This document shows positions 2,360 through 42,734 of a stretch of DNA of 46,933 nucleotides, in pieces (position 1 is the stretch's first letter; each line of letters begins with the position of its first letter). The DNA comes from Candidatus Yanofskybacteria bacterium RIFCSPHIGHO2_01_FULL_41_26. Its GTDB lineage: Bacteria > Patescibacteriota > Minisyncoccia > 2-02-FULL-40-12 > GWA2-44-9. The DNA is taken from positions 1-46,933 of the forward strand of contig MGJB01000002.1 in the NCBI GenBank assembly GCA_001794055.1, in the 5' to 3' direction. The translations under genes were made by a program, and so were the position numbers. The notes beneath the pieces were generated by a model. The model searched no databases. It had not been told where the DNA came from and saw only the letters and a list, made by a program, of their open reading frames with translations.

Positions 2360-2482
2360 TTTGATCTTCTCTTGCTAAATATCACCTGTCACCAAAACGG
2401 ACTTTGGCGGAGGGCGTGTGCCAATACAATGGGGGTCTTTGTGATACAAAGACCCCCATTGTATTTCTGAAATGTTGCAACC
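2360..2482. repeat. Family A repeat, diverged copy carrying a different perfect palindrome
   Basis: TTTGATC..TTGCTAA..TCACCTG..GGCGGAGGGCGTGTGC matches the reverse complement of family A. It is followed by the perfect inverted repeat AATACAATGGGGGTCTTTGT-GAT-ACAAAGACCCCCATTGTATT. Confidence 0.6.
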
Positions 2483-17077: not shown

Positions 17078-17225
17078 ACAACCAGCAAAGGCATCAAAAA
17101 CCAATACTAATGGGGCTTGCAATATTGGCCAAAGGAAATATCGAAATACCTGCCTGTCCGGCAGGCGGGTCGACATGTCGAAATATCTTTTGGCCAGAAT
17201 TGTTTTTTACTCTTTTGTTGGTATT
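17078..17225 (+). promoter_or_regulatory. Long stem-loop in the pnp 5' leader
   Basis: ACCAGCAAAG/CTTTTGTTGGT outer stem, TGGCCAAAGG/CTTTTGGCCA inner stem, apical palindrome CCTGCCTGTCCGGCAGGCGGG. Confidence 0.55.
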
Positions 17226-17230
17226 TAGTC

Positions 17231-19354
17231 ATGGACATAAAAACTTATAAAGAAGAGTTTGCCGGGAAGCCATTAATGGTTGAATTTGGTCGTCTTGGTG
17301 GACAAGCCAATGGTTCTTGCCGGATTCAGTATGGCGAAACGACGGTGCTTGTTAACGCCACTATGTCGGCTCACCAGAAACAGGTTGACTATATGCCCCT
17401 CTCGGTTGATTACGAAGAAAAATATTATGCCGCTGGAAAGATAAAAGGTTCGAAATGGATAAAACGCGAAACCCGTCCTTCGGACGAGGCCATTTTGACC
17501 GGTCGAGTAATTGACCGTTCAATTCGCCCTCGTTTTAATCACAACATCAGAAATGAAATTCAGGTTGTTGCAACCGTGCTTTCTTTCGACGGAGTTAACG
17601 ACCCTGACATGCCTGCACTTTTTGGCGCTTCGCTGGCACTTATGACTTCGGATATTCCTTTTGACGGACCCATTGCCGGGGTAAGGGTCGGCAGGATTGG
17701 AGGCAAGCTTGTTTTCAACCCAACTTATAAGGAAAGAACTGAAAGCGATTTTGACATTATTGTTGCGGGAACAGCCAATAAAATAAACATGATAGAAGCT
17801 GGTGCCAAAATAGTTCCTGAGAAAGATGTAACCGAAGCTATCGCTGCTGGCTTTAAAGAATTTCAGAGTTTAATTAAATTGCAGAATAAAATTGCTAAAG
17901 AGTTTGCTTCCAAGAAAAAAGAACTATCGGTGTTTACTCACGACGAGGCATTGGTATTGGCGGTTAGAAATTTTGCTGATACAAAATTAGAGAAAGCTCT
18001 TTATGCTCCCGGTAAGAATAAAACTGAATTTTACGAAGGATTGGGTCAGATCAAAGACGACTTGATGATTTATATCAAAGAACAGTATAAAGAGTATCCT
18101 GAATTAAGTAAAAAAATTGACGAGGCTGGATCTGTCTATGAAGAAGAAATAGACCGTATCGTCCACAGAAATATTATTGATCCGCCGGCTGGCGGAGAAA
18201 AAAGACCCGATGGCAGAAAGACCGATGAATTAAGACCGTTGAACGCCGAGGTCGGCATTCTTCCCCATTCCCACGGAACAGGACTATTTAATCGCGGCAC
18301 CACTCAAGCGCTTTCTATTTTGACTTTAGCAGCTCCTGGACTTGAACAGTGGATAGAGACGATGGAAATAGATCTTACCAAAAAGCGTTTTATGCACCAT
18401 TATGTTTTTCCTCCTTTCAGTGTCGGAGAAGTCGGCCGAATGGGCGGAGGCGGCCGCCGTGAAATTGGCCATGGAGCTTTGGCTGAAAGATCGCTTGAAC
18501 CAATTATTCCCGCTAAGGACAAATTCCCATACACCATTCGTGTTGTTTCAGAAATCCTCTCTTCAAACGGATCATCGTCTATGGCTTCGGTCTGTGGTTC
18601 TACTTTGGCTTTGATGGATGGCGGAGTTCCTATCAAATCCTCCGCTGCTGGCATTGCTATGGGTTTGATGTTGGACGAGAAGGGTGAGAAGTATAAAATT
18701 CTTACCGATATTCAAGGTCCAGAAGACCATCACGGCGACATGGATTTGAAAGTTGCCGGAACCAAAGATGGCGTAACTGGAATGCAAATGGATGTAAAAG
18801 TTGAGGGAATTACTGTTGAGATAGTTGAAAAAACGTTGATTCAGGCCAAAAAAGCTCGCTTGGAAATCTTAGCGGCTATGGAAAAGGCAATCAGCACTCC
18901 TCGGCCGGAATTATCTCCGCATGCTCCCCGAGTAGAAACGATTAAAATTAATCCTGCCAAGATCGGAGCTCTTATCGGTCCGGGAGGCAAGATAATAAAT
19001 GAAATTATTGAAAAAACCGGGGCTGAAATTGATATTGAAGATGACGGCTCGGTGTTTGTGACTTCTCTAACTCCTGAAGGGATGAAAAAGGCGTTGGCCC
19101 TGATTCAAGAAGTTACATATGAACCACAACCTGGAGACGAATTTGATGGTACGGTGGTAAGCATCAGAGATTTCGGGGCTTTCGTAGAAATAATACCTGG
19201 TAAAGACGGGATGGTCCACATATCAGAAATCAGTACACAAAGAGTAAATAAAGTGACTGATGTTCTGAAAATGGGCCAGAAGGTTCATGTTTGGGTCAAG
19301 GCCGTTGACGATATGGGGAAGATAAGTTTGACGATGAAGCCCCCTAGAAGATAA
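17231..19354 (+). CDS. pnp: Polyribonucleotide nucleotidyltransferase
   Basis: Two RNase PH domains (RVIDRSIRP, RPDGR, RREIGHG, SNGSSSMASVC, DHHGDMDLKVAGT) plus KH and S1 domains. Start moved to ATG 17231. Confidence 0.98.
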   Translation: MDIKTYKEEFAGKPLMVEFGRLGGQANGSCRIQYGETTVLVNATMSAHQKQVDYMPLSVDYEEKYYAAGKIKGSKWIKRETRPSDEAILTGRVIDRSIRPRFNHNIRNEIQVVATVLSFDGVNDPDMPALFGASLALMTSDIPFDGPIAGVRVGRIGGKLVFNPTYKERTESDFDIIVAGTANKINMIEAGAKIVPEKDVTEAIAAGFKEFQSLIKLQNKIAKEFASKKKELSVFTHDEALVLAVRNFADTKLEKALYAPGKNKTEFYEGLGQIKDDLMIYIKEQYKEYPELSKKIDEAGSVYEEEIDRIVHRNIIDPPAGGEKRPDGRKTDELRPLNAEVGILPHSHGTGLFNRGTTQALSILTLAAPGLEQWIETMEIDLTKKRFMHHYVFPPFSVGEVGRMGGGGRREIGHGALAERSLEPIIPAKDKFPYTIRVVSEILSSNGSSSMASVCGSTLALMDGGVPIKSSAAGIAMGLMLDEKGEKYKILTDIQGPEDHHGDMDLKVAGTKDGVTGMQMDVKVEGITVEIVEKTLIQAKKARLEILAAMEKAISTPRPELSPHAPRVETIKINPAKIGALIGPGGKIINEIIEKTGAEIDIEDDGSVFVTSLTPEGMKKALALIQEVTYEPQPGDEFDGTVVSIRDFGAFVEIIPGKDGMVHISEISTQRVNKVTDVLKMGQKVHVWVKAVDDMGKISLTMKPPRR

Positions 19355-19578
19355 CGCTCCGCCCCCTCCCCATTTTCGACCTATTGCTTGCGCCTTCGGT
19401 CTCCTACAGAGATTCGAAAGGCGGCCAAAGCACGCTTCTCCGAGATCGGACAAATGCTCAAATTAGATCTCAATTTGCTTAATAAATCTTAGCATCCGTT
19501 TCTCCTTCGACAAGCTCAGGATTTTCTGGCTAAGATTTATTATCTAAGAAAATTATCAACTAATTTGAGCATTGCGTT
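19355..19578. repeat. Structured dispersed repeat, family B, copy 1
   Basis: Long hairpin core 19449-19578 aligns with 24058-24184. Starts right after the pnp stop codon. Confidence 0.85.
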
Positions 19579-19837
19579 ATTTTGGGCAATGGTGGCCATG
19601 ATTGGATTTTTGCCCTGTGTGTTGTTTGGTGGTCAGTTGTAGCTTCGATACAGAAAGGTCTAGTGGTCGTCACCTGACGAACTGCTGGCTCCCCTGTCTC
19701 GGGGCTTTTATTTTTAAATGTTTACAACTTATTTCCTGATTGTGTTAAAATAAAATAGTTAAAAGTTTATCGAGTTCATCATGTTTATAAAGTTAACTTT
19801 AAGAACTTTATAACTTTACGAACTTTCAACTATCTCT

Positions 19838-21214
19838 ATGGCAGACGATAATAACACTACAAAAAATATGGATATAAATGATTTGGTCAGGGAATTAAGC
19901 AAGAGTCCTACAAGTCCAGTGCCCCCTTCGCCTTCTCCTGCGCCTCAAGCGCCGAGGCCGGCTTTTCCTTCTCCTCCTCCTCCGATTACTCCTTTCCAAC
20001 CAAAACCATCGGAAATGCCTCGACCCCAGTTTAATGCTCCTCCTCGACAGTTTGACAAACCCATGCCTACCGACAAACAGGCAATTCAGCCAAAACCAGC
20101 TCCAACAGCCCCAACTCCAACCATGCCTACTCCTGCTGTCCCCCTTCCGACTCCAGGGGTCAAAGAATATCAGTCATCCATAAGAACGATGAATGAAGAT
20201 ATTTCCAGACTTAAACAAGGCCAAAAACCGACGGGAATCGACGTTCCAAGAAAGGTTGAACAGGTTGTTCCTGCTCCGGTGACACCTTCTCCAACTAAAC
20301 CAGTGATACCGAGTCCACAATTAAAAGTTCCAAGCGTAAATCTTGGTGAAACACAAAAAACCGGGCCCATAGCTCAATCAAAAGATGTTTCTAAGCCGCC
20401 CGCAATTCCGAAAGTAGAGCCGAAACCTCAAATTTATATTCCTCAAGAAGGCCAAAAAGGCGGCAACAGAAATATGCTTTTTATCGGAATTGGCGCCGCG
20501 GCCATAGTGGCGGGATTTTCGTATTGGTTCTTTGTTTTAAGATTGCCGGCCTCTGATTTTATAGTTGAATTACCCACTCCTGTTCCGACAGCTATGACAA
20601 CTCCGACTCCTGTTTTGAGCGATATTTTTGCAAATTTAGAAAACCAAACGGTCTGTACCTCTGAATGCACTCCAAGTTCTTTTTTTGAAGATATTAATGA
20701 GCAACCGATTAGCGGAGGGCAATTCAAGTTTCTTTATTTTAGTGAAAACAACACATTGCGAACGATTGCTCAGTTGTTTGATGATTTCAAATTGGTTTAC
20801 CCGGGTAGCCTGAAAGGCTTATTAGGAGAAGATCGTGGAATATTTGTTTATGGTCAGAAGGAAATATTTGACCAAAAAGGCCTGATTAGAACCGATTCCA
20901 TAGTTGAAAAACGCTTGGTACTTATTAATGAAGCAACAGACTCCATCGCAGTTTCTCAACTGTTGAAAGAATGGGAAACAGATATGCCGAATAATTTAAG
21001 AGAAATATTTTTACTTGAATTAAAGAGGCAGACGAGCCAAGCTTTTTCTGATAATTTTTATCGAGGGGTCAGTATAAGATATCAAAATTTTGCATATTCA
21101 GACAAAAGCATAGATTATGCGGTTGTCGCTGCTCCTAATGGCAAATCATATTTGGTTATAGCCGGTTCAAGAGAAGCTATGTACGCAACAATAGATAAAC
21201 TCCTAGGCTTTTAA
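19838..21214 (+). CDS. Membrane protein with a Pro-rich N-terminus, one TM helix and a C-terminal domain
   Basis: 458-aa ORF, P-rich low-complexity first 200 aa, TM segment MLFIGIGAAAIVAGFSYWFFV. Confidence 0.85.
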   Translation: MADDNNTTKNMDINDLVRELSKSPTSPVPPSPSPAPQAPRPAFPSPPPPITPFQPKPSEMPRPQFNAPPRQFDKPMPTDKQAIQPKPAPTAPTPTMPTPAVPLPTPGVKEYQSSIRTMNEDISRLKQGQKPTGIDVPRKVEQVVPAPVTPSPTKPVIPSPQLKVPSVNLGETQKTGPIAQSKDVSKPPAIPKVEPKPQIYIPQEGQKGGNRNMLFIGIGAAAIVAGFSYWFFVLRLPASDFIVELPTPVPTAMTTPTPVLSDIFANLENQTVCTSECTPSSFFEDINEQPISGGQFKFLYFSENNTLRTIAQLFDDFKLVYPGSLKGLLGEDRGIFVYGQKEIFDQKGLIRTDSIVEKRLVLINEATDSIAVSQLLKEWETDMPNNLREIFLLELKRQTSQAFSDNFYRGVSIRYQNFAYSDKSIDYAVVAAPNGKSYLVIAGSREAMYATIDKLLGF

Positions 21215-21217
21215 TGG

Positions 21218-21417
21218 GGTGACACATTGTGTATAACCTGTTGTCACTATCAAGCAATGTCACCAATAACCACTTGTCCAAGCAAGTGGTTATTGAATCA
21301 TTTTACTTATTTAAAGCCAATTTTTCATGGTGACATGGTGACATTATCACCATGTCACCATGGTGTCACCTTATCCACAGTTTTGCTATTGCAATGTCAC
21401 CATCGACTTTATATAAT
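21218..21417. promoter_or_regulatory. Regulatory locus: two DnaA boxes, nine TGTCACC-type motifs, sigma70 promoter
   Basis: TGTGTATAA 21228-21236, TTATCCACA 21371-21379, repeated GGTGACA/TGTCACC, TTGCAA-17-TATAAT 21389-21417. Confidence 0.65.
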
Positions 21418-21423
21418 TAGTTT

Positions 21424-21539
21424 AGATCTTTGGCTGGTGGTCTGACACACAAGTGGATCATTGGCATTTTTCCTCGCAAGAGGACAGGAGGCGCAGAGCT
21501 CACACTACATATTTTTTAGGAGCGTTCTGCGCCTTTTTT
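21424..21539 (+). ncRNA. Candidate small RNA or attenuated leader
   Basis: Lies between a near-consensus promoter and the terminator-like AGGCGCAGAGCTC...GAGCGTTCTGCGCCTTTTTT. Internal TCCTC-GCAA-GAGGA GNRA hairpin. Confidence 0.45.
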
Positions 21540-21550
21540 GATTTTTTGTT

Positions 21551-21686
21551 TAATTCTGAATAGGTGACACAACCTCTATGCATGACTGCGGGGTGCACTT
21601 TTTTAAAATATTACTAATTTTAAAAAAGCACACACCCTCCGCCGGTTGCATAGTTGTCAGATGACAACTGGCCATAGAGGTTCAAA
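21551..21686. repeat. Family A repeat, full copy
   Basis: AACCTCTATG/CATAGAGGTT closing stem; CCCTCCGCCGGTTG at 21635-21648. Confidence 0.85.
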
Positions 21687-21893
21687 CTTTCACTGATTTT
21701 GGCTCAAAGGGCCGGTTTTATTTTGCAAAAGTTGTCTCAGGTAGAGTTTAGATTCTAGTTGAGGTCAGACACCTCAAGAGCTTACCACTTTCTCGCTCGG
21801 TCGCTCACAAGGCCGGTTTGACTTGACAAAAAGATTGAAAGTATTATAGTTATGTAACTTTCGTGCCAAGAGCAAGAGGGTGGGAGGTAGGAA

Positions 21894-22103
21894 ATGAGAG
21901 TCGAGTTCGTGCCGATTGTTGGATTCCTCGTAAGTTTTCATCGCGCGATAAAAATGCAGTCACTACAAAGAAACAGCGTCATTTCAGTATGGGATGGCAG
22001 TGATTATGTTTTTGGTCCGTTTACAATTTCTGCAATCATTTCTTACGGTTTTCTTCAGTTAATTATTGTGATTCTTGCTTTGTGTAAATCATTTTTAGCA
22101 TAA
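21894..22103 (+). CDS. Small membrane protein (stand-alone unit)
   Basis: TTGACA..TATAGT promoter, GGGAGG SD, hydrophobic C-terminus, GCCC/GGGC+T terminator. Confidence 0.65.
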   Translation: MRVEFVPIVGFLVSFHRAIKMQSLQRNSVISVWDGSDYVFGPFTISAIISYGFLQLIIVILALCKSFLA

Positions 22104-22183
22104 CAATCAAGTTTATTTGCCCCATCTCGCTTTGGGGCTTTTTGTTTTTAGATAAGCCGTTGATCTTACTTTATCAATGGAAG

Positions 22184-22300
22184 TTTGAATCTTTGTTGCC
22201 AATCGTCACCTGTTTACCCAAACAACCGGCGGAGGGAGAGGCTTTTTACAAAATTAGTAAATTTTAAAAGCGAAACCCTAATCCATTAGAGGGACTTATG
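22184..22300. repeat. Family A repeat, inverted copy
   Basis: TTTGAATCTT..CAACCGGCGGAGGG..GCTTTTTACAAAATTAGTAAATTTTAAAAG matches the reverse complement of 21590-21686. Confidence 0.8.
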
Positions 22301-22376
22301 GAGTTCGGCAGAACGAGTACGAGGCAAAATTTTAGCAAGAGTTTATGCCGTGCCCGAGAATGGGTTAGGGTTGAGC
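22269..22376. repeat. Family B termini (inverted) around an unrelated core
   Basis: Reverse complement GCTCAACCCTAACCCATT...AATGGATTAGGGTTTCGCT matches the ends of 24000-24228. Confidence 0.6.
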
Positions 22377-22449
22377 TTTGCTTTTTAAAACAGAATAGTT
22401 ATTATATTAAACATCATACTAACTATCGCAGGAGGGGCGATGCGCTTTT

Positions 22450-23994
22450 TTGTCCATACGGCTTTTTTCTTCAGCAATCAACGGTATAGATGCCCAGCTC
22501 ATAGAGGTAGAAGTTGACTCAACTCCCGGTATTCATGCTTTTAATATTGTTGGTCTTCCTGACAAGGCAGTCCAAGAATCTAAGGATAGGATTGCCTCGG
22601 CTATCAAAAACAGCTCTTTAGCCGCCCCCAACTCAAAACACAGGAAAATTATCATAAATTTGGCTCCAGCCGACCTCAAAAAAGAAGGACCTTCTTATGA
22701 TTTACCCATTGCCGTCGGTTATCTGATGGAAACTAAGCAAGTCCAGTTCGATTCTTCTCAAAAATTGTTTATCGGGGAGCTTTCTTTAGACGGTTCCCTA
22801 AAGCACACCAATGGCATCTTGGCCACGGCGATTTTGGCGAAAAAGCTGGGTTTTAAAGAGCTGGTAGTCCCCTATTCTAATCTTGCTGAAGCTCAAATAG
22901 TTCAAGGCCTAAATGTTGTCGGAGCCAAGAATGTAAAGGAAGTGTTTGATCATCTTAATAATACACGACCCCTATCTGCCAAATATCTCAAAACTTCTAA
23001 TTTGTCGGAAGAAAAAGATGAGGACTTGCTAATGTCTATAAAAGGCCAAGAAACAGCAAAAAGAGCTTTGATTGTTGCAGCGGCCGGAGCTCATAACATT
23101 CTGATGTCGGGCCCCCCAGGTTCTGGCAAGACACTTTTGGCTAAGGCATTAGCCGAACTGTTACCTAAAATGTCTTTTGAAGAAGCGATTGAAGTGGCTA
23201 AGATATATAGTTCGGTCGGACTCATTAAGAACTCTCCCCTGTCTTTCAAACGGCCATTTAGAAGTCCGCATCACACAACATCTGCTCCGGCAATGGTTGG
23301 CGGAGGTACTTGGCCAAAACCGGGAGAAATAAGTTTAGCCCATCGAGGTGTTTTATTTCTGGACGAGCTTCCTGAATTTCCAAGAAATGTTTTGGAAAGT
23401 TTGCGACAACCACTGGAAGAAGGCACTATCTCTGTTTCTAGGGCCTCAAGCTCGGTTATTTTACCGGCTAACTTCACTTTAGTAGCGGCAATGAATGCCT
23501 GTCCTTGTGGTAATTTTGGTGAAGAGAAGGGGGTCTGTTACTGCTCCCCTATTCAGGTTTTAAATTACAGAAAGAAAGTGTCCGGGCCGTTGCTGGATAG
23601 AATAGATATTCAAATAAACGTTCCGCGCGAAACAATTGGCTCTGTCGATTCGCCCCTAAGCAAGGCTTCGGGGATAAAAGTAGGCGAAATAAAGGGTCAA
23701 ATAAATAAAGCCAAGGAGGTTCAGTTGGCCAGATTCAAGAATACCGGCCTTTTGGCCAATTCCGAGATTGATTACAAAAATATAGATAAATATTGTGTTT
23801 TGGATTCAGGAGCAGAAAATCTGCTTAAACAAGCCATTAATTTTAAAAATCAGTCATTAAGGGCGTATCACAAAACCAAGAAATTGGCCCGCACCATTGC
23901 CGATTTAGACGGTTCGGAGTCAATCAAAGAGCAACATGTGGCTGAAGCGGTAAATCTTCGCATGAATGAGAAGATGTTGAACGAGTTGGCATAG
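22450..23994 (+). CDS. comM: YifB/ComM Mg-chelatase-like AAA+ ATPase
   Basis: IVGLPDKAVQES, NLAPADLKKEGPSYDLPIA, GPPGSGKT, PGEISLAHRGVLFLDELPEF, SGPLLDRID, ARTIADL. Confidence 0.95.
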   Translation: MSIRLFSSAINGIDAQLIEVEVDSTPGIHAFNIVGLPDKAVQESKDRIASAIKNSSLAAPNSKHRKIIINLAPADLKKEGPSYDLPIAVGYLMETKQVQFDSSQKLFIGELSLDGSLKHTNGILATAILAKKLGFKELVVPYSNLAEAQIVQGLNVVGAKNVKEVFDHLNNTRPLSAKYLKTSNLSEEKDEDLLMSIKGQETAKRALIVAAAGAHNILMSGPPGSGKTLLAKALAELLPKMSFEEAIEVAKIYSSVGLIKNSPLSFKRPFRSPHHTTSAPAMVGGGTWPKPGEISLAHRGVLFLDELPEFPRNVLESLRQPLEEGTISVSRASSSVILPANFTLVAAMNACPCGNFGEEKGVCYCSPIQVLNYRKKVSGPLLDRIDIQINVPRETIGSVDSPLSKASGIKVGEIKGQINKAKEVQLARFKNTGLLANSEIDYKNIDKYCVLDSGAENLLKQAINFKNQSLRAYHKTKKLARTIADLDGSESIKEQHVAEAVNLRMNEKMLNELA

Positions 23995-23999
23995 GTATC

Positions 24000-24228
24000 G
24001 CTCAACCCCACCCCCCCATTTACTGGCCTGTTGGTTACGTCCTCCGGATCTTCGTCAGACAAATACTAAAATTAACCTTCAATTTGCTTAATAAATTTCA
24101 GCAACCGTTCCTCCGCCTGCTGGCGGATTTTCCGGCTAAAATTTATTGTATAAGCAAATTATCGGTTAATTTTAGTATTGTGTTGCCTGGCGAAACCAAA
24201 CGGCCTCAAATGGGGATGGGGTTTCGCT
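24000..24228. repeat. Family B repeat, copy 2 (complete long hairpin)
   Basis: Nested inverted repeats from AACCCCA..CCATTT/AAATGG..TGGGGTT up to the apical TCCGCCTGCTGGCGGA. Confidence 0.85.
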
Positions 24229-24334
24229 CAAAGCCAATAAATCGGCTCAAAAGGCCGGTTTTTTGGCCTTGCAATTTTATTTAAGTTGTGGTATAATTAG
24301 TTTATTCTGAAGAAGTACTGAACAGGAGGACGAG

Positions 24335-24505
24335 ATGGATTTCTGGCAAGTTCACGGAATTTGGTTCCTTATCTTCATCATGATGTTCCCACGGTTGACG
24401 ATGTTGTTCGCCGTGACGGTGCCGTTCGGCTGGCTCGCTTGGCTGGGCTGGGTATTCACCCCCTCCCTCCGTACGCGTAGAGGTTGCGGGGTGCTATTGA
24501 AATAA
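24335..24505 (+). pseudogene. Small Trp/Phe-rich membrane protein, probably 3'-truncated
   Basis: TTGCAA-17-TATAAT and AGGAGG SD precede MDFWQVHGIWFLIFIMMFPRLTMLF...WLGWVFTPSL. The frame then reads into a family A end fragment. Confidence 0.6.
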
Positions 24506-24508
24506 AGT
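24471..24508. repeat. Family A terminal fragment
   Basis: GTAGAGGTTGCGGGGTGCTATTGAAATAA compared with ATAGAGGTTGTGTGAACTATTGAAATAA (reverse complement of 1062-1089) and CAGGGGTTGTGGGGTGTTATTGAAATAA (43036-43063). Confidence 0.7.
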
Positions 24509-24566
24509 GCTGGGCGGAACGAAAGTTCCGCGCGGAACTTTTAAAAACCACCGATTTCGGTGGTTT

Positions 24567-25700
24567 TTAGTATTTAAGGAGGGGATTTCTTGCTCCGTGG
24601 ACTTCAAAGTGAAGGTGGCAGCCCGTAGAGCGGCCTGTTGAGCCCATGATGCCTATTAATTGGCCCTTGGCGACGGTTTGTCCGGAGAGAATGACTATTT
24701 TGCTTAGATGGGCGTAGAGAGTTTCTGTGGCGTTAGGATGGTTTAATTTAATGAATTTACCAAATCCGCCGTTATATCCAACAGCATCAGCTGTTATTGT
24801 GTTGCCGTCGGCTGCTGCATAAATAGGGGTTCCGCAAGAATTGGCCAAGTCAGCACCGTTTCTTCCGTGGAGTCCTTGGCTTATTCTTCCTTGAGTCGGG
24901 ATCATAAAATAGTCGCCCAAGTTAGGAAGGTATGAAAACCTCTTAGCAATTGCCGACTGTGCTCCTGGTTTTGTTATAATAAGAGACTTTATCTGTCCAT
25001 CCGGAACAATCAATTCCTCATTTATTTCCAAAGGCTGGCCTTCCTTGAGGTCATTGAATGCTAATATTTTGTCTGAAGGAATCCCATACTTCTTAGCGAT
25101 TGAAGTCACTGTTTCACCATTTTTAACTTTGTGAATAACTCCGGAAACTGGAGGAATTCTCAAGACTTGGTCAGGTTTTATGCTGTTTGCATTTGCTAAA
25201 TTATTAGCCCAGATAATAGAATCAACACTTACACCATAGTCGGAAGCAACAAAAGACAACAAATCTCCGGTCTGGACCGTGTATTCGACTATCTGATTGC
25301 GTTTAAATCCAATTTCTATATAGTCGGTTATGGTTGGGTTGCTGGCTATTACAGAGTTTTCTTGGATTGTTGAGGGGTCAAGATTATTGGATTCTTCCCC
25401 TCCTTGGCCAAGATTTTGGCTACTTAAGGCGGTTAAACTATTAATGTAAGCTAATTGATTTTGGGATTGAGTGATATTAATTATTGATGCTGAAGTTTCC
25501 TCTATGTAATTTCTAATAAGATTACTAAACAGGTTTGTTTGTCCTTCGCTGGATGCTCCTTTAAATATCAAGACCAAAAAAACAAGTGTTAATGTTCCAT
25601 AAAAATTGAATAAACGGCTTGTTGTAAAGCTTTTAAATTTAGGCCAAAATGACCCTTCCCTTCCGAATTTTATCGAAAGAGTTTTTAAGTTTTGGAGCAA
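24567..25700 (-). CDS. LysM-LysM-M23 cell-wall peptidase
   Basis: TM helix; YTVQTGD..IIWANNL and HKVKNGETVTSIAKKY LysM repeats; YAHL, GSTGRSTGCHLHFEV. Confidence 0.92.
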   Translation of the reverse strand: MLQNLKTLSIKFGREGSFWPKFKSFTTSRLFNFYGTLTLVFLVLIFKGASSEGQTNLFSNLIRNYIEETSASIINITQSQNQLAYINSLTALSSQNLGQGGEESNNLDPSTIQENSVIASNPTITDYIEIGFKRNQIVEYTVQTGDLLSFVASDYGVSVDSIIWANNLANANSIKPDQVLRIPPVSGVIHKVKNGETVTSIAKKYGIPSDKILAFNDLKEGQPLEINEELIVPDGQIKSLIITKPGAQSAIAKRFSYLPNLGDYFMIPTQGRISQGLHGRNGADLANSCGTPIYAAADGNTITADAVGYNGGFGKFIKLNHPNATETLYAHLSKIVILSGQTVAKGQLIGIMGSTGRSTGCHLHFEVHGARNPLLKY

Positions 25701-33523: not shown

Positions 33524-35021
33524 ATTTTTTCTTTCTTTCACTATCGAACATTGCTAGTAGATCTTTGTCATCAACCCTGGTTTCTAAAAATACCTTCTTT
33601 CCCCACAGGTGGTTAATTTTTTCTAAAGTGGCGTTCATATATTTGGGGTCAAGCTCATATCCATTCCAGACATGTCTAAGCAAAAGATGATTCTGGCTGT
33701 TATAGTTTCCGTTTTCAACTCTGATAAGCGGCACTCCGTAATAAGTGAACTGATTTTTTAGGATTTCTCTTATTACATCCGGATTATCTTCGACAATCAC
33801 ATAAACAATATCCCCATTTGCTGTCGGTAATCCTGCCCAGATATATAATTGCTGTTCCCTGATGAATTCGTCAGTGAAAAATTCTTCTACAGCCATTCGA
33901 TCGCTATAAAAAGAACGAACTTGGAATATTTTTTGATTTCCCAGTCCAGCGGCCGTGTCCCACCTAGAGTGCTTAAAAGCATTTTTTTCTTCCTCATACT
34001 CTCTACCGAATTGGCCCTTGTCCCATCTTTCTTTGATGTTCTCAAACAAGGAAAGATAAATTCGATACCAGTTAAAGCCGGCTTTGTTTTCTCGGGTTAC
34101 CCCTGAATGAAAATCATTGAATACCCCATGTTCTTCAGGGGTGATAACGCCTTCTTCAAAAAGTCGTCTCATTATCCTGACGTGCCAATAAGTAGCCCAA
34201 CCCTCATCGAGTCCTTTTGTTTTTCTGTTTGGCGCCAAACTTCTGGCTTGATTTCTTATTACCGTCAAGACATCAATCATCCAGGGCTTAAGAGGTTTAG
34301 GCGACTTTTTGATTAAATAATTAAGGATATCATAGGTTGGTTCGGGCGGAGTTTTTGTTGATAATCTTTCCAGCCTTTTTTCTATTTGCTCAATTTCTTG
34401 TTGGGTTTCTGATTTTTTGAATTTTGATTTTACGTCTTCAAATCTTTCAAGTTTTGCTCTTTCAAAAGCTATTAACCTTTCTCTGACAGTTTCTTCATCC
34501 TGTTCTTCAAAGAATGGATCAGGATCCTGGTGCCATTGAATCGACATTCCTGCATCAATTACTTTCTCTACTTCCTGTTGTCCATGACGTGCTTCGTATT
34601 CTTTAAAGCGCTTGGAGGCGTTTCTAGCTTCTTCAGCAACGTTGGAGAAGGAACGCCCATGTTTTAAATATCTGTTTGCCAAAAAGAAATCAACATGGCC
34701 ATAAACGTGGGCGATGACAAGAACATTTAAAGCAAATGGGTTTGTTTCCACTAAAAAGGCTTTTGGTTTGTCAAAATTCCAAACTTGCTCATAAGGTATG
34801 CCTGCTCCCGTGTGTTCATAAATAGTACGGTGTTTTTCGTAATCCCTGCCGAATGTCCAATGAGAAAAGTTAACTGGAAATCCGTAAGACATTCCCTCAA
34901 GCACTCTCTGGGCTGTAGTTATTTCGAATGTAATTTCGGTGGTTAAGAGGCCTGATTCTTCTGCTATTTCTTTTATTCTCTTTTCGATTTGAATTAAACG
35001 TTCAACTCCTTGCTTCTTCAT
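33522..35021 (-). CDS. spoVR: SpoVR/YcgB family protein
   Basis: FSHWTFG, YE, IAHVYGHVDFF, TKGLDEGWATYWH, LLLRH..G.ELD. Start at ATG 35021 overlapping the yeaH stop. Confidence 0.92.
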   Translation of the reverse strand: MKKQGVERLIQIEKRIKEIAEESGLLTTEITFEITTAQRVLEGMSYGFPVNFSHWTFGRDYEKHRTIYEHTGAGIPYEQVWNFDKPKAFLVETNPFALNVLVIAHVYGHVDFFLANRYLKHGRSFSNVAEEARNASKRFKEYEARHGQQEVEKVIDAGMSIQWHQDPDPFFEEQDEETVRERLIAFERAKLERFEDVKSKFKKSETQQEIEQIEKRLERLSTKTPPEPTYDILNYLIKKSPKPLKPWMIDVLTVIRNQARSLAPNRKTKGLDEGWATYWHVRIMRRLFEEGVITPEEHGVFNDFHSGVTRENKAGFNWYRIYLSLFENIKERWDKGQFGREYEEEKNAFKHSRWDTAAGLGNQKIFQVRSFYSDRMAVEEFFTDEFIREQQLYIWAGLPTANGDIVYVIVEDNPDVIREILKNQFTYYGVPLIRVENGNYNSQNHLLLRHVWNGYELDPKYMNATLEKINHLWGKKVFLETRVDDKDLLAMFDSERKKK

Positions 35022-36337
35022 TGGGTCCACCTGTCTTTTCTCAAGAATGCTTTCAGGGCTGGTAAAATATGTTCTCGCTCCATGAGGCGTACACACAGAA
35101 GGGGCAAGTCTTTATCGCCTTCGGCTATTCCCAAACCATTATCTTGTGTTTCTTTCAAGGTAAAGTAGTTTTTAAATTTCTGCCAGAGTCCGGATCTTTT
35201 GTTCTTAAACCAATCCGGATCAGCATCCGGTTGAACTTCCCCGTAGCCAATCATGTTCACTCCTTTATCAATAAGTTTTCCCAACTCTTCAATGGTTCTT
35301 TCGGGGTCAAAGTCTTCACCGTCGGAAAAGTGCCATACATAAACGTTCCAACGATTGGTTGGGTATTCCGTATCAATCAAGCTGCTTGCCAGTTCATATG
35401 CTGTATGGCAATTAGTTCCTCCACTTTCCCCGGTTCTAAAAAAATCCTCTTCGCCCACTAATTTAGCTGTGGAATGGTGGATTATGAACCTAACTTCAAC
35501 GTTTCTGTATAATTTTCTCAAAAATGCCACCAACCAAAAAAGCATTGCTCGGGCTAAATATTTTTTCATATAGCCCATTGAACCGGAAACATCCATCATG
35601 GCAATAATAACTGCGTTGGACTGGTTCTCCGTGTCTTGCTGAATTTCCCGGTATCTCAAATCGTCAGCCTCAAAAACAGGGAATGGAATTATGGTAGATT
35701 CTTTTGAGGTCAACTGGTTTTGTTTAATAATTTCAATGGCTTTTTCCAGTAATCCACCGGCTTGTTTAAGGGCGCTAAAGCATATAAATTCGTCAGATCC
35801 GGTCTCCGCTTTGAGCGTTTCTAAAAAGATCCAAAACCTTCTCATCCCTTCTTGGGCAGTAGCCCTTCTGTCAAGTAGAGGCCAAGGGCCGGATTTTACG
35901 ATTCCGCCTATCTTGTACCCCAACTCTACAATTAATTCTTTTACTTCCTTTTCTTCCAATTGCGGAAGACCAAGATCTTCAAGCATCAGTTCAATAATTT
36001 CTTCAATTTCCACTTCTGTTTCTATATAATCTTCTCCGGGTTCTTCTCCGGGTTCTCCCGGCTGACCTTGAGCTGGTTTATGGCCAATGACATCTCCGGG
36101 CTGACCATCTCCTTGGCCGATTCCTTCGGATTCATTTCCTGTTTTTGGACGAAAATGAGGCAAGTCAATGTTTCTAATCGGGATCTTTATCACTCTGCCT
36201 TTTTTTTGGGTGATTATCGACTCGTCGGCAATAATTTCAGGAAGCTTTTTGATTATAGCTTCTCTTTGTTTTTCACGGTGCCGGCGGGCATCTTTACGAC
36301 CGCGCTCTGTAACGGGTTCCGATACTATGATAGGCAC
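35018..36337 (-). CDS. yeaH: YeaH/YhbH (DUF444) vWA-domain protein
   Basis: DARRHREK, GIGQGDGQPGDVI, DDLRYR, MMDVSGSM (MIDAS), ESGGT, FSDGED. GTG start at 36337 with GAGGTG SD. Confidence 0.92.
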   Translation of the reverse strand: MPIIVSEPVTERGRKDARRHREKQREAIIKKLPEIIADESIITQKKGRVIKIPIRNIDLPHFRPKTGNESEGIGQGDGQPGDVIGHKPAQGQPGEPGEEPGEDYIETEVEIEEIIELMLEDLGLPQLEEKEVKELIVELGYKIGGIVKSGPWPLLDRRATAQEGMRRFWIFLETLKAETGSDEFICFSALKQAGGLLEKAIEIIKQNQLTSKESTIIPFPVFEADDLRYREIQQDTENQSNAVIIAMMDVSGSMGYMKKYLARAMLFWLVAFLRKLYRNVEVRFIIHHSTAKLVGEEDFFRTGESGGTNCHTAYELASSLIDTEYPTNRWNVYVWHFSDGEDFDPERTIEELGKLIDKGVNMIGYGEVQPDADPDWFKNKRSGLWQKFKNYFTLKETQDNGLGIAEGDKDLPLLCVRLMEREHILPALKAFLRKDRWTQ

Positions 36338-38689: not shown

Positions 38690-41122
38690 GTGCATCCAAA
38701 ACATCAAATCGTGCTTCCTGTACAGCACGTCTTGATAAATCTTGGTCCGAGCATAATGGTAATGCCAGGGACTTGGTCTTATATTCGTTTAGACGATCAT
38801 GAATCTTCCAGTAAGATTTTGACAGCAGTTAAGGCCGGGCAAGCCCCTTATGTTTTTGCTGTAATGTCTGATCCTCAGATAAAAGATCCGCCGGACAGAT
38901 TTTATAAAGTTGGCGTAGTTGCTGAAACACGACCATACAATGATGATCGGGCCATTGTTTTGGGGGGTCTTTTAAGGGCCGAGATTACTAAATTCATAAG
39001 GGTTGGAGAAAAGGGCGGAGGTCTTTGGATGGTTAGCCTCAAGAAGATAGAAGACGAGAATCACGATGATTATTTTGTAAAATCTAATCAACATGTTTTG
39101 GCTGATATGATAAAAATTAGAGATCTTCTGAGGTCTTTTGTGATCAGAGCGGAAGGATCTTATCTTTTTGACAAGAGGCTTCTGGATCTTCTGTTGGATA
39201 ATTTTGAAAATACTGACTGGGGAAATAAAGATGCGGTTGATAATTTTATCTGGTCAACACTGCATGCGGTTCCGGATTTACTCCAAGAAGATAAACAGCC
39301 TATTCTTGAAAGCATGAGTTTGCCGGAAAGAATTGAGCTTTGCATTAAAACTATTAAGAAAAGATTAAAGCTTCTAGAAATTCAAAAAGAGAATATGTCA
39401 AAAGATGGCAAGCTTATTAGAAGAGCAAGAAAAACCGAAGTAGATCCCCGAGGTGATGCAAATAAAAACGACGAAGATGATTTTGTCAAAGGCATTCATG
39501 TCGACATAAAAAAGAGATGGGAACAATTCAAATTAATTAGGGATCACATGAACGAAGATGCTGGCGATGTGATAATGGAGGATCTTGAGAAGCTGAAGTC
39601 CTTAGGAAGTCCGCAAGGGAATAATTACGAATGGCCCAAGTATATGCGGCGCGTAGACTTTATTCTTGGTCTTCCCTGGAAAGAAGAAACGGTTCAAGAA
39701 GGCAATATCTCTAAAGTGGCACAGATTCTCGACGAAGATCACTTTGGCCTTGTTTGTGAAAAGGATTCAATTTGCGACCAAGTCGCTCCCAAATTGCTTA
39801 ACCCCGGTAGTAGGGGATCCATTATTTGCCTTGTCGGTCCTCCCGGAACAGGGAAGACTTCTCTTGCCAAATCAATAGCTAGGGCATTGAACAGAAAATA
39901 TATCAGGATGTCTTTAGGTGGTGTTAGAGATGAAGCCCAGATCAGGGGCCACGGCATTACTTATGTTGGTGCTGAACCCGGAGAGATACTGAAGCTGATG
40001 AAGCGATGCGGAGTTAAAAATCCATTGTTTGTTATTGACGAGATTGATAAATTGGGACAAATGTCCACCAGCGGAGACCCATCCGCAGCGATGCTTGAAG
40101 TTTTGGATCCCGAACAGAACGGTACATTCAAGGACCATTTTGTAGCTTGTGGATTCGACCTTTCAAGGGTTATGTTTATCGCTACGGCAAATCAGGAACA
40201 TACGATCCATCCCGCTCTTAGAGACAGGATGGATGTTACTCGTTTGCCAGGATATTTAGAAGTTGAGAAGGTGGAAATTGCCAAGAGGCACCTAATCCCT
40301 CGTTTGATGAAAGACTTAGGTCTTATTCAAAATAACGTCGAAGTTGCATGGGAAGAGGGCCTGATCTCCAAAATCATCAGGAGCTATACAAATGAAGCCG
40401 GAGTCAGAAACATTGAAAGAGCTCTTGCAAAAATTTTAAAAAAGATTTGTCGAGCATATCTCAAATCAAAAAACGAGGAAGAGCCGGTTACTAAATTTAA
40501 TGTGACTGAACAAAAAGTCCATGAGTATCTCGGACCACCCAAGTTTACCAAGGACAGAGTCAGGCCTACGAAAGTGGGAGAGGCAATAGGCCTTGCCTGG
40601 ACTCCTGTCGGCGGAGACATTCTTTACGTTCAAGTAGAAACCTACCCCAGACTACAGGGCAAGAAAGTTTTTGCTCGAACCGGAATGCAGGGCAAAGTTA
40701 TGGAAGAATCTGATGAAGTTGCCTTAACTCTAGTAAGAAATAGGCACCCAGAGTTGTCTGAAAAGTTATCGGAGCTTGCTATCCATTTGCACATACCAAA
40801 CGGTGCTGTTCCTAAAGATGGACCTTCTGCTGGGATAACCATAGTAAGTGCTTTAGAATCTGAAATAACGAATAAGCCTATAAAATTTAATTTAGCAATG
40901 ACGGGGGAGATAGATTTAAAAGGCAGAGTTTTAGCGGTTGGCGGGATTAGAGAAAAGATAGTGGCCGCTGAAGGAGCGGGCATAGAATCAATTATTATGC
41001 CAAAGGATAATGAGAGAAATCTTCACGACGTGCCTGAGGCCGTAAAGGACAAACTAATATTTCATTTTGTGGAGTCAATAGATGAAGTTTTGGAAAATGC
41101 ATTTCCACGGGACCCGGCTTAA
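38690..41122 (+). CDS. lon: Lon (La) ATP-dependent protease with a divergent N-domain
   Basis: LDEDHFGL, GPPGTGKTS, LGGVRDEAQIRGH, IDEIDK, EAGVR, PKDGPSAG (Ser), GGIREK (Lys). Confidence 0.96.
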   Translation: MHPKHQIVLPVQHVLINLGPSIMVMPGTWSYIRLDDHESSSKILTAVKAGQAPYVFAVMSDPQIKDPPDRFYKVGVVAETRPYNDDRAIVLGGLLRAEITKFIRVGEKGGGLWMVSLKKIEDENHDDYFVKSNQHVLADMIKIRDLLRSFVIRAEGSYLFDKRLLDLLLDNFENTDWGNKDAVDNFIWSTLHAVPDLLQEDKQPILESMSLPERIELCIKTIKKRLKLLEIQKENMSKDGKLIRRARKTEVDPRGDANKNDEDDFVKGIHVDIKKRWEQFKLIRDHMNEDAGDVIMEDLEKLKSLGSPQGNNYEWPKYMRRVDFILGLPWKEETVQEGNISKVAQILDEDHFGLVCEKDSICDQVAPKLLNPGSRGSIICLVGPPGTGKTSLAKSIARALNRKYIRMSLGGVRDEAQIRGHGITYVGAEPGEILKLMKRCGVKNPLFVIDEIDKLGQMSTSGDPSAAMLEVLDPEQNGTFKDHFVACGFDLSRVMFIATANQEHTIHPALRDRMDVTRLPGYLEVEKVEIAKRHLIPRLMKDLGLIQNNVEVAWEEGLISKIIRSYTNEAGVRNIERALAKILKKICRAYLKSKNEEEPVTKFNVTEQKVHEYLGPPKFTKDRVRPTKVGEAIGLAWTPVGGDILYVQVETYPRLQGKKVFARTGMQGKVMEESDEVALTLVRNRHPELSEKLSELAIHLHIPNGAVPKDGPSAGITIVSALESEITNKPIKFNLAMTGEIDLKGRVLAVGGIREKIVAAEGAGIESIIMPKDNERNLHDVPEAVKDKLIFHFVESIDEVLENAFPRDPA

Positions 41123-41174
41123 AAAGCCGGTTTTTTGTAAAAAAGTGATTTTTGGCGTATACTTTTTAAAGATT

Positions 41175-42734
41175 ATGTTCAACTACCTCCATGTCGGCCG
41201 GGCTACTGATTTAATCGACGACAAAGACCGGCACTTATTCCGCCTTCTGGAAGTAATGCCTGGTTTTTTGGCTTGGCTTACGTTGTTTTTGGTGGCCTTG
41301 TTGTCTTTTTTGGTCCCGTTTTGGATGGCGATATTTATAATTGCCTTCGATGTTTATTGGCTCATTAAAACTGTGTATTTGTCTTTGCACCTGCGAGTTT
41401 CGTACAACAAACTGAAAAAGAATCTGACCTTAAACTGGATTGAAAAATTAAACAGACTATCGACTATCGACTATCGACTATCGACTATCAAATCGTGGCA
41501 GGATATTTACCACTTTGTTTTTCTGCCTTTGTATAAAGAAGATTATTCTGTCGTTGCTTCCACGATAGAAGGTCTTTTAAAAACAAATTATCCAAAATCA
41601 AAGATGGTGGTAGTTATTTGTTGGGAAGAAAGGGGGGGCAAAGAGACTGAGTCGGTTGTCCGTGAAGTTGAAAAAAATTATAAAAATGTTTTTTTAGATT
41701 TTGTATCAGTAATGCATCCGGCCAACCTTCCTGATGAGATTCCTGGCAAGGGTTCAAATACTGCTTATGCCGCAAAGATGGTCAGGGATTCTATTGTTGA
41801 TGTCCGTCGGATTCCATATGATCATATTCTTGTTTCTAATCTTGATATTGATACTGTCGTTTTTCCCGAATATTTTGGAATTTTGATGCACACTTTTCTT
41901 ACTACGCCTAACCCGCTACGTTCTTCTTATCAGCCGATTCCTTTGTATGTTAATAACATTTGGGAAGCTCCGTCATTTGCAAGAGTAGTTGCTTTTGCGG
42001 CGACATTCTGGCATACCGTGAAACAGGAGAAAGCCGAAACGGCCACGACATTTTCATCCCACTCAATGCCATGGCAGGCATTGGTAGATGTCGGATTTTG
42101 GCAAAAAAATATGGTTTCAGAGGATTCTCGGATATTTTGGCAGTGTTTTTTAAGGTATGACGGCGATTACAAGGTTGTGCCGTTATTTTATCCGGTATCA
42201 ATGGATGCCAATGTTGCTTCAACAAATTTTCAAACACTGAAGAATGTTTACAAACAACAAAGGCGCTGGGCATATGGGGCCGAGAACATACCTTATTTCA
42301 TGTTTGGTTTTATGAGAAATAAAGCCATTTCTTTCTCTAAAAAATTGTATTATGGGTTCATGGTCATTGAAGGAAATCACTCCTGGGCAACGAATGCCCT
42401 GCTTATTTTTGTTTTAGGCTGGCTGCCGGTCTTGCTGGGCGGTCAGGAATTTAACAGAACAGTTCTTTCTTTTAATTTGCCTTATTTGACTAGAATAATC
42501 ATGACTCTTTCGATGCTCGGCTTGGTTTCTTCGGCTATTTTATCTATTATTCTTCTTCCGCCTCGGCCTCTTAAATACGGCAAATTTAAATATTTCTGGA
42601 TGCTGGTTCAGTGGGTATTATTTCCCGCAACGACAATATTTCTCGGTTCCATACCGGCATTGGAAGCTCAAACTCGCCTGATGCTCGGCAAGTATATGGG
42701 GTTTTGGGTAACCCCGAAGATTAGGGCAAGGTAA
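41175..42734 (+). CDS. Multi-TM family 2 glycosyltransferase
   Basis: PLYKE, GKGSN, LDID (DxD), SED, QQRRW; TM helices at both ends. Start taken at ATG 41175. Confidence 0.88.
   Translation: MFNYLHVGRATDLIDDKDRHLFRLLEVMPGFLAWLTLFLVALLSFLVPFWMAIFIIAFDVYWLIKTVYLSLHLRVSYNKLKKNLTLNWIEKLNRLSTIDYRLSTIKSWQDIYHFVFLPLYKEDYSVVASTIEGLLKTNYPKSKMVVVICWEERGGKETESVVREVEKNYKNVFLDFVSVMHPANLPDEIPGKGSNTAYAAKMVRDSIVDVRRIPYDHILVSNLDIDTVVFPEYFGILMHTFLTTPNPLRSSYQPIPLYVNNIWEAPSFARVVAFAATFWHTVKQEKAETATTFSSHSMPWQALVDVGFWQKNMVSEDSRIFWQCFLRYDGDYKVVPLFYPVSMDANVASTNFQTLKNVYKQQRRWAYGAENIPYFMFGFMRNKAISFSKKLYYGFMVIEGNHSWATNALLIFVLGWLPVLLGGQEFNRTVLSFNLPYLTRIIMTLSMLGLVSSAILSIILLPPRPLKYGKFKYFWMLVQWVLFPATTIFLGSIPALEAQTRLMLGKYMGFWVTPKIRAR

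Follow-up and report, generated by a model that had tools for sequence, protein, structure and literature searches.

What are the long hairpins that stand a few bases behind the stop codons of two housekeeping genes in a small bacterial genome, and do they matter to the cell as RNA or spread as DNA? The stretch analyzed here (the window, 46,933 nt) is one whole contig, MGJB01000002.1, of the 0.8-Mb, 18-contig genome of Candidatus Yanofskybacteria bacterium RIFCSPHIGHO2_01_FULL_41_26 (GCA_001794055.1; rated 100% complete; G000 below), a bacterium of the Candidate Phyla Radiation (CPR). Its pnp and comM genes are each followed by a copy of a palindromic repeat that we call family B (copies B1 and B2), and a shorter hairpin with the same ends (B3) lies upstream of comM. 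We conclude that family B is, on balance, probably a non-autonomous palindromic mobile DNA element of the broad kind that includes repetitive extragenic palindromes (REPs), the hairpin-forming REP doublets known as REPINs, and miniature inverted-repeat transposable elements (MITEs), and that it would be co-transcribed as a 3' tail of the gene upstream. Within that kind, we read it as a new form in CPR bacteria, set apart by its unusual length and its concentric nesting.

Hairpins behind pnp and comM

17117..19354, + strand: pnp (polynucleotide phosphorylase) gene, with Pfam RNase_PH, KH and S1 domains
19355..19623, + strand: B1, whole family-B element (nhmmer 181.5 bits at 19350-19605; alignment of copies)
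19406..19446, + strand: side hairpin of B1, an optional 41-nt insert of the left arm whose loop reads GGCCAAAGCAC (alignment)
19447..19580, + strand: core hairpin of B1 (covariance model 139.5 bits; fold z -5.8; pair counts)
22269..22377, - strand: B3 copy, a hairpin with family-B feet and another core (BLAST)
22450..23994, + strand: comM-type Mg-chelatase-like ATPase gene, with Pfam Mg_chelatase, ChlI and Mg_chelatase_C domains
24000..24229, + strand: B2, whole family-B element (nhmmer 209.6 bits; covariance model 142.7 bits)

An earlier description made from the letters of the window (the sequence-only reading) had singled out 19449-19578 and 24058-24184 as homologous hairpins, and both parts of that statement hold: the two stretches match at 76.9% over 130 nt (E 1.7e-22), and they fold at -37.7 kcal/mol (z -5.8, B1) and -47.7 kcal/mol (z -9.4, B2), with none of 200 shuffles as good in either case. 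These stretches are the cores only, however, and the whole elements extend from 19355/6 to about 19623 and from 24000 to 24229, with whole-element folds of -76.7 kcal/mol for B1 and -96.2 kcal/mol for B2. Both begin a few bases past a stop codon, as had been noticed: the pnp TAA stop lies at 19352-19354 and the GCTC foot of B1 begins 1 nt after it, and the comM TAG stop lies at 23992-23994, with the GCTC foot of B2 beginning 5 nt after. B1 starts at 19355/6 with an intact left shell (19355-19405) and carries the conserved loop CCGTT../..TTTTCTGG in its core, with the tip at 19496-19528; its right arm (19581-19623) is decayed, with an end near 19623. B2 consists of a left shell (24000-24055), a core (24056-24186, tip 24105-24134) and a right shell (24187-24229) that ends in TTTCGCTC.

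The ends of family B recur in inverted orientation at 22269-22377 around another core, adjoining a copy of a further repeat, family A, at 22173-22269, much as first described. This hairpin represents a separate 110-nt family, B3, with seven genome copies at 81-94% identity (BLAST), and its ends (GCTCAACCC / GGGTTTCGC) are the same as those of family B. The GCTC end of B3 points toward the start of comM, 72 nt away, and the element folds at -45.8 kcal/mol on the + strand and -31.9 kcal/mol on the - strand. The remark that comM is bracketed by inverted B ends is literally true of G000, but in sister species the 3' end of comM bears other elements or none.

Anatomy and interchangeable modules

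Full copies of family B are 207-343 nt long, and each folds as one rod, with minimum free energies (MFE) of -62.7 to -125.3 kcal/mol. The rod begins with an outer shell, inside which follow a core of 127 nt, a conserved internal loop and, at the apex, a variable tip. The feet, GCTC and TCGC, close two G-C pairs around a UC/UC mismatch and have the full form 5'-(TC)GCTC ... TCGC(TC)-3'; the left foot reads GCTC in 28 of 45 copies and GCGA in 7, and the right foot TCGC in 25 of 45 and GAGC in 1. The outer stem is G+C-rich (CCCCnCCCCAUUU / AAAUGGGGnGGGG), and inside it 4-bp and 6-bp helices flank a conserved 2x2 loop, inward of which the left arm bears a small side hairpin. The core is A+U-rich and holds a conserved 7x7 internal loop, AUCCGUU / UUUUCCG; the loop letters already picked out from B1 and B2, CCGTT / TTTTCCGG, fall in columns that are invariant or at least 90% conserved among 42 aligned cores. 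The apical tips, hairpins of 13 to about 40 nt, vary from copy to copy as had been observed, and their lengths differ by non-multiples of three, which excludes a shared open reading frame (ORF).

Several kinds of exchange are visible among these parts. Identical tips recur in separate clades of the tree of copies, and the side-hairpin module occurs in 5 of 45 aligned copies, at one fixed place in the left arm. One copy (L028) is a complete family-B element enclosed by another B-like shell; a palindrome named REP2 and a family of about 120 nt, family E (20 copies in G000), are seated at the tips of shells of family A. In more distant members, from genera g7 and g34, shell and stems are retained but the apical module is a different one, and a CCGUUCC..GGAUUUUCCGGCUAA module is placed in other scaffolds in genomes G001 and G052. 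The description of family B as a nested, mix-and-match set of hairpin modules with maintained pairing is borne out by the shared tips and modules, by the pair counts of the core and by the permutations of the outer arms given below. A loose regular expression for the apical module was also tried and set aside, as it returned mostly chance matches, the genuine ones among the matches listed being known family-B copies. Free-standing modules of about 45 nt that resemble the side hairpin, with a conserved GGCTAAAGCAC loop, lie at 44146 (- strand) in the window, at C6:138085 and at C11:35563.

Copy number and distribution

CPR bacteria have among the smallest and most tightly packed genomes known. 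Self-comparison of G000 found 23,504 of its 799,807 bases repeated, so that about 3% of this small, packed genome consists of interspersed structured repeats. The largest linked repeat group has 31 intervals and comprises B, B3, A and a 170-nt family D. Family B itself is represented in G000 by 11 full copies and 4 partial ones. With 11 of these G000 copies as a profile, 53 copies (redundant ones removed) were found in this genome and in the loci examined from six relatives; full copies scored about 150-227 bits on the forward strand and 22-63 bits on the reverse strand at the same places, a gap that makes the orientation of the element unambiguous.

Family B is confined to a few genera of Yanofskybacteria-type CPR bacteria, ultra-small organisms of groundwater in which it numbers a dozen or more copies. 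The covariance model of the core matches in 23 of 62 genomes of the taxonomic family, with a sharp division by genus (g1 5/5, g7 7/7, g5 4/4, g12 3/4, g2 0/12). An exact-pattern scan of 185,579 species genomes returned 60 stretches, 40 of them in metagenome-assembled genomes with CPR titles; on 24 of the 60, the covariance model matched all 4 CPR controls, none of 19 non-CPR loci, and one contig end titled Buchananbacteria. No catalogued Rfam family overlaps B1, B2 or B3: cmscan of 19000-24600 at E up to 1 gave five weak matches, all far under gathering scores and none on these elements. Phage and plasmid collections held no family-B match at E up to 1e-3, and full-text searching of the literature found no description of such repeats in CPR bacteria.

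Position and orientation relative to genes

Grouped by upstream proteins, the 53 copies fall into 45 distinct locus groups. The upstream gene lies on the strand of the element in 32 of 41 locus groups and on the opposite strand in 9 (binomial p 4e-4), four further groups without an upstream ORF standing outside the 41. At 34 of the 45 complete left ends, an ORF of 60 codons or more on the same strand ends at most 60 nt upstream; for 22 of these the distance from stop codon to element is 1-5 nt, most often 2 nt (10 copies), and the remainder comprise 1 overlapping copy, 3 at 6-20 nt and 8 at 21-60 nt. Passages of one study describe REPs that lie less than 20 bp from the 3' ends of ORFs and can supply the stop codon, and the stop-adjacent spacing of family B matches the behavior published there for tagged REPs (PMC3733652). 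The shorter families show no orientation bias relative to the upstream gene (B3, 3 same and 4 opposite; E, 9 same and 8 opposite).

A canonical terminator-like site is present within 220 nt downstream in 6 of 46 copies, including B1 and B2 by scan, and the order of stop codon, family B and canonical terminator was rejected as a general layout, being true of those 6 copies only. An intrinsic terminator consists of a G+C-rich stem with a U tract directly after it; in the element itself, the outer G+C-rich stem is followed by UUUCGCU(C/U), and the flanks are only moderately T-rich. The wider proposal of a hairpin directly past every stop codon in the genome was also rejected: the 60 nt after 707 crude gene calls did barely better than coding controls, with an MFE of -20 or lower in 57 versus 15 controls and a non-discriminating first-paired-base measure (141/218 versus 97/145).

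Turnover and decay of copies

A comparison of presence and absence in relatives had been suggested from the outset. Twenty-four copies in relatives abut a same-strand gene, and 20 of these genes have a confident orthologue in G000; the corresponding G000 3' ends carry family B at 3 sites, another repeat family at 3 and nothing recognizable at 14, of which 2 show foot-like remnants. The 3' end of comM bears family B in G000 and G016, a remnant of a B left arm in G002, family D in G005, family A in G003 and, in G001, a 14-nt hairpin only, with no family-B element. Behind pnp, family B is found in G000, G005 and G002, a D-like element in G003 and other hairpins in G001 and G016. In contigs from four metagenomic DNA runs, the 3' ends of pnp or comM are likewise joined either to family A or to a short hairpin with the terminator motif behind it, but these joints belong to other organisms or loci, have sides under 35 nt and were taken at a likeness threshold of 85, and are a weak echo only. 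At the pnp end of G016 (L052), the hairpin element, which begins CGCTCAACC, takes in the stop codon and the codons just before it, with its foot within those last codons, and it has rewritten the C-terminus of the protein.

Two copies at different loci, C14:5360 and C15:87444, are near-identical, with branch lengths of 0.016 and 0.009. Copies are not clustered by genome on the tree, the 11 rows from G000 requiring 9 changes against a mean of 10.0 when shuffled. Decay is seen in the degraded right arm of B1, in an internally deleted copy (C11:34565) and in two half copies (C18:11341, C15:63261). Several contigs of relatives terminate within such repeats.

Subfamilies of the element recur across genomes and genera with identities well beyond that of neutral DNA. 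The element behind comM was compared between G000 and G016, which belong to different genera. It is 88.8% identical over 232 nt; the comM gene itself is 62.9% identical overall and 38.9% at third codon positions, and the downstream flank is unalignable. Such identity reflects either strong constraint on nearly every base or the recent arrival of one subfamily in both lineages, and loss or replacement of the element at this site in sister species inclines us to the second.

Maintenance of pairing

The compensatory pair quoted in the sequence-only reading is genuine and one of many. Across 42 aligned cores, 95.1% of cells are paired, and double changes occur at 19 of 46 pairs (121 cells); none of 500 shuffles reached this level of pairing, and sliding the partners by 1-3 columns leaves 2-5 double-change pairs. 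The core structure was written by hand and derived from the same 42 sequences on which it was scored. In the outer 30 nt, the duplex of each copy with its own opposite arm averages -29.1 kcal/mol versus -22.8 kcal/mol with the arms of other copies, and none of 5000 permutations was as low. Whole stems have been swapped in concert, for example from CCCCAUUU/AAAUGGGG to AGUCAUUU/AAAUGACU and to GCCGCCAUC/UAGGCGGC.

The form of these changes bears on whether RNA or DNA is the molecule whose pairing is kept. Single-sided changes in the core produce about 25 G-U cells versus about 95 unpaired ones, which is not above the G-U expected from random transitions. The near-identical pair C14:5360 and C15:87444 differs mainly in the left 25 nt, and in C14:5360 these are the exact complement of its own right arm, GCGA foot included. 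In G002_L043 the side-hairpin module stands on both arms, with the inverted copy at the mirror position. Template switching from arm to arm at quasipalindromes, as passages of PMC7202029 describe, yields changes of this sort that are compensatory in a single event. The arm copy of C14:5360 and the doubled module of G002_L043 are what such switching produces and point to a process at the DNA level, and part of the covariation may stem from arm-to-arm copying of DNA instead of selection on RNA. Direct evidence for RNA as the form under selection was not found; the core shows no enrichment in G-U pairs, and modules are copied between arms.

A probable mobile palindrome

We consider that family B is probably mobilized through a hairpin intermediate and carried in 3' untranslated regions (UTRs). 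The palindrome could extrude as one long rod hairpin and would then spread through a single-stranded hairpin intermediate that inserts at or into existing hairpins just past the ends of genes; insertion of this kind would account for the nesting as well as for the 1-5 nt between stop codon and element. Two things would each in part preserve pairing: mobilization would require a hairpin, and arm-to-arm template switching would carry changes across to the opposite arm. Once in place, the element would passively join the transcript of the upstream gene as its very stable 3' tail, which may be tolerated by the cell or used to protect or end the transcript.

In G000, two genes of the Y1_Tnp family (C6:127961-128761 and C11:1055-1804) resemble REP-associated tyrosine transposases (RAYTs): both score above the Pfam cut-off, and their best NCBIfam model is that of REP-associated tyrosine transposase, at 42.7 and 45.3 bits with a cut-off of 80. 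Each is flanked by its own perfect palindrome of about 38 nt (REP1, REP2), of which the genome holds 7 copies each; REP2 flanks the gene on C11 and has one copy in the window, at 2406-2473. Judged from sequence, these genes and palindromes constitute a classical REP-RAYT arrangement within a 0.8-Mb CPR genome.

A number of results weigh against a mobile origin of family B and are collected here. The link to a RAYT gene that had been proposed as a check failed to appear: none of 18 RAYT-like loci in 8 genomes matches the family-B profile, and other perfect palindromes lie near 13 of the 18, with clear flanking pairs at about half. Y1_Tnp genes are present in all 8 genomes that hold family B and also in 15 of 33 relatives without it, and this association is confounded by kinship and is not used as support. 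G000 has no IS110 match; its only tyrosine recombinase is of the Xer type (XerC/XerD 248 bits; TIGR02249, the integron-integrase model, 132.7 bits with a cut-off of 265), and its only reverse transcriptase lies in a region that resembles a diversity-generating retroelement. Across the families searched (Y1, IS110, tyrosine recombinase and reverse transcriptase, with DDE unsearched), a mobilizing gene linked to family B was not found in G000. No variable target-site duplication was seen in the flanks of 45 copies, where no direct repeat recurs other than the constant (TC)GCT(C) of the feet. Insertion was also not seen directly, as the 8 filled sites in relatives that were compared with G000 are all unalignable past the stop codon; intergenic DNA cannot be aligned even between congeners, which renders an insertion junction or duplication unreadable. 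The slower evolution of the element relative to synonymous sites would be explained equally well by a function for the host. A simple selfish model predicts neither the 32:9 orientation bias nor the spacing of 2 nt, which could hint at a role at the RNA level. Finally, folding shows an unexplained strand asymmetry: the more stable fold belongs to the strand that lies opposite the upstream gene in all 45 copies under RNA parameters and in 41 of the 45 under DNA parameters. The mean fold is -100.0 kcal/mol on the opposite strand versus -87.9 kcal/mol on the gene strand, a difference of 12.2 kcal/mol, with 271 versus 132 G-U pairs. The strand in the sense of the gene is rich in pyrimidines (C 24.6%, G 17.9%), and loops and mismatches on it accordingly turn into G-A and G-U on the opposite strand; since this conserved asymmetry is inherited among copies, the 45 are not independent observations.

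Two further results stand beside this search. No long-range pair of family-B termini encloses an ORF in G000, and an autonomous parent of that form was thus not found there. The reverse transcriptase at C12:33328-33936 is near paired repeats of about 130 nt (34559-35166, 41869-42003) and looks like part of a diversity-generating retroelement.

Alternative explanations

The main rival to a mobile palindrome, which we regard as possible but rather unlikely, is a cis-acting RNA module of mRNA 3' ends that blocks 3'-to-5' exonucleases, ends transcription, or couples the termination of translation to the fate of the mRNA; mobility would then be merely its route to new genes. The sense orientation in 32 of 41 locus groups and the 22 of 45 left ends that stand 1-5 nt past a stop codon fit such a module, as do the occupation of the same comM and pnp slot by other structured families in sister species, the loop letters conserved across the 42 cores and the greater conservation of the element than of synonymous sites. 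With a separate terminator behind just 6 of 46 copies, the element may itself end the transcript, and REPs downstream of ORFs are thought, in passages of PMC3733652, to act as RNA. Against this stand the 14 of 20 orthologous gene ends in G000 that manage without any repeat, the persistence of decayed copies, and the 9 of 41 locus groups in which the element is antisense to the neighboring gene. The sense strand is the less stable fold in every copy, single changes in the core show no excess of G-U (about 25 G-U cells, about 95 unpaired), the duplication of the side hairpin onto the other arm is a DNA event, and the sister families B3 (3:4) and E (9:8) lack the orientation bias. Offered the choice between a 3'-UTR RNA element and MITE- or REPIN-like DNA, as the sequence-only reading had left it, the evidence leans to DNA; the 3' position and the predominant sense orientation are both real.

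A more speculative possibility starts from the ends of these repeats. The feet (TC)GCTC ... TCGCT are common to families B, B3, D and E and form direct, not inverted, repeats; they are the strongest lead to a common mechanism. It is conceivable, if doubtful, that they mark a common hairpin-handling machinery that inserts, nests and swaps hairpin cassettes 1-5 nt past stop codons. Under that same doubtful proposal, the repeats would form an exchange system for 3'-UTR modules across at least four sequence-unrelated rod families (B, B3, D, E), and the mismatches, pyrimidine-pyrimidine on the gene strand versus G-A or G-U on the other strand, might tell the machinery which strand it is handling.

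Another reading casts the elements as hairpin-specific sites of site-specific recombination, with the feet as crossovers and B, B3, D, E and A as cassettes exchanged at the stop-adjacent position. Integron attC sites, the model for this, are imperfect palindromes defined by structure, which follow a gene in its orientation and have mismatches that distinguish the strands and a variable apex. Family B shares with them a conserved structure with a variable apex, a conserved mismatch that tells the strands apart and a place behind the stop in the orientation of the gene; in addition, different families replace one another at one site, four families share the GCTC../..TCGCT feet, and the left foot GCTCAAC fits the R'' consensus RYYYAAC. 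The right foot GTTTCGC, by contrast, does not fit the R' consensus GTTRRRY, the sole tyrosine recombinase scores far better as XerC/XerD than as an integron integrase (see above), and there are no cassette arrays, the neighbors (pnp, comM) being housekeeping genes in conserved order. At 207-343 nt, family B also exceeds the generally known sizes of attC sites, and unlike them it is conserved in sequence within families. We judge this explanation very unlikely.

Least likely of all are independent small-RNA genes transcribed from the opposite strand, cis-antisense to the 3' end of the neighboring mRNA, to which the better folding and additional G-U pairs of that strand might point, as might the terminator-like sites that 14 of 46 copies have in antisense within the 220 nt downstream, but no minus-strand promoter-like site was found beside B1 or B2 in a scan of 19300-24600, and the asymmetry derives largely from purine-rich loops and mismatches shared by descent.

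Relation to known repeat families

As a mobile palindrome, family B most resembles the REP/REPIN-RAYT systems. Like REPs, it is extragenic, multi-copy (15 copies in G000) and near the 3' ends of ORFs; it is also small, non-coding and multi-copy with inverted-repeat ends in the manner of MITEs, the whole element being an inverted repeat. Passages of PMC3733652 and PMC3337134 describe REPs as extragenic multi-copy palindromes that fold as hairpins, and the former also describes an unpaired tag at the foot and positions near ORF 3' ends at which the REP sometimes supplies or overlaps the stop codon. REPs also occur as several families per genome and make up larger composite hairpins, both of which have parallels here, and G000 itself encodes two RAYT-like Y1 transposases flanked by classical REPs. 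The differences are equally clear. Family B is ten times the length of a REP and two to three times that of a REPIN; it is one continuous rod with conserved internal loops, not two short inverted REPs and a spacer; its feet are GCTC and TCGC, whereas the REP tags given in passages of PMC3733652 are GTAG or CGTC; and it stands beside none of the 18 RAYT-like genes examined. It is likewise distinct in sequence from its sister families within the genome, such as E and B3, and is set apart by its greater length and its orientation bias.

Other bacterial repeats offer looser parallels. The enterobacterial repetitive intergenic consensus (ERIC, also called intergenic repeat unit, IRU), other enterobacterial intergenic repeat units and the Correia elements of Neisseria are imperfect palindromes of 100-170 bp in transcribed intergenic DNA; some copies have extra internal segments at fixed sites, and the elements are co-transcribed and thought to alter mRNA stability. 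They have TA target duplications and conserved terminal inverted repeats. Family B is like them in being an imperfect palindrome with optional segments at fixed sites and in its presumed co-transcription, a comparison made by description and not by sequence, and differs in having no variable duplication and no conserved inverted termini beyond the feet, in its length and in its deeper nesting. In bacterial interspersed mosaic elements (BIMEs), which also lie at gene ends, short REPs and linker motifs are strung together in tandem. Palindromic units are combined into a mosaic there too, but the modules of family B are arranged concentrically within one hairpin.

Family B is a tractable case in which to ask how REP-like palindromes move when no transposase is linked to them, what makes elements of this kind settle directly past stop codons, and how much of the RNA-like covariation in palindromic repeats stems from DNA template switching. 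Such repeats also break assemblies, and they can pass for structured non-coding RNA genes in covariation screens.

Other features of the window

2406..2473, strand not assigned: REP2 palindrome at the tip of a family-A-like element (repeat comparison)
19687..19706, + strand: terminator-like hairpin and T run downstream of B1 (consensus scan)
21559..21697, + strand: family-A copy, left member of an inverted pair (self-BLAST; inverted repeats)
22173..22269, - strand: family-A copy, right member of the inverted pair, abutting B3 (inverted repeats; self-BLAST)
24238..24297, + strand: small terminator-like hairpin (AAATCGGCTCAAAAGGCCGGTTTTT), then a TTGCAA-17-TATAAT promoter of the next small gene (scan)

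A hairpin motif, CGGCTCAAAAGGCCGGTTTT, precedes promoters in the window at 24238-24263, 21695-21720 and 41115-41134. Copies number five in G000, and in G001 and G005 the motif recurs downstream of comM or pnp. In its first half it is similar to the foot and flank of B2 (TCGCTCAAAGCC).

The inverted family-A pair at 21559-22269 encloses a near-consensus promoter, TTGACA-16-TATAGT, at 21823-21850. Between its members lie a 69-codon ORF without a Pfam match (21894-22103) and a terminator-like hairpin (22119-22138). A 458-codon ORF, also without a Pfam match, occupies 19838-21214, between B1 and the family-A region. Upstream of it, at 19796-19831, AACTTT words are repeated; in four metagenome runs the summed contig depth over this stretch is 7-60 times that of its neighbors, and many metagenome contigs break there, which marks it as a very common repeat in the community. 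Past the same ORF, 21215-21410 holds a dense cluster of GTGACA / TGTCACC words with a 16-nt perfect inverted repeat at 21326-21362, which could be an operator array.

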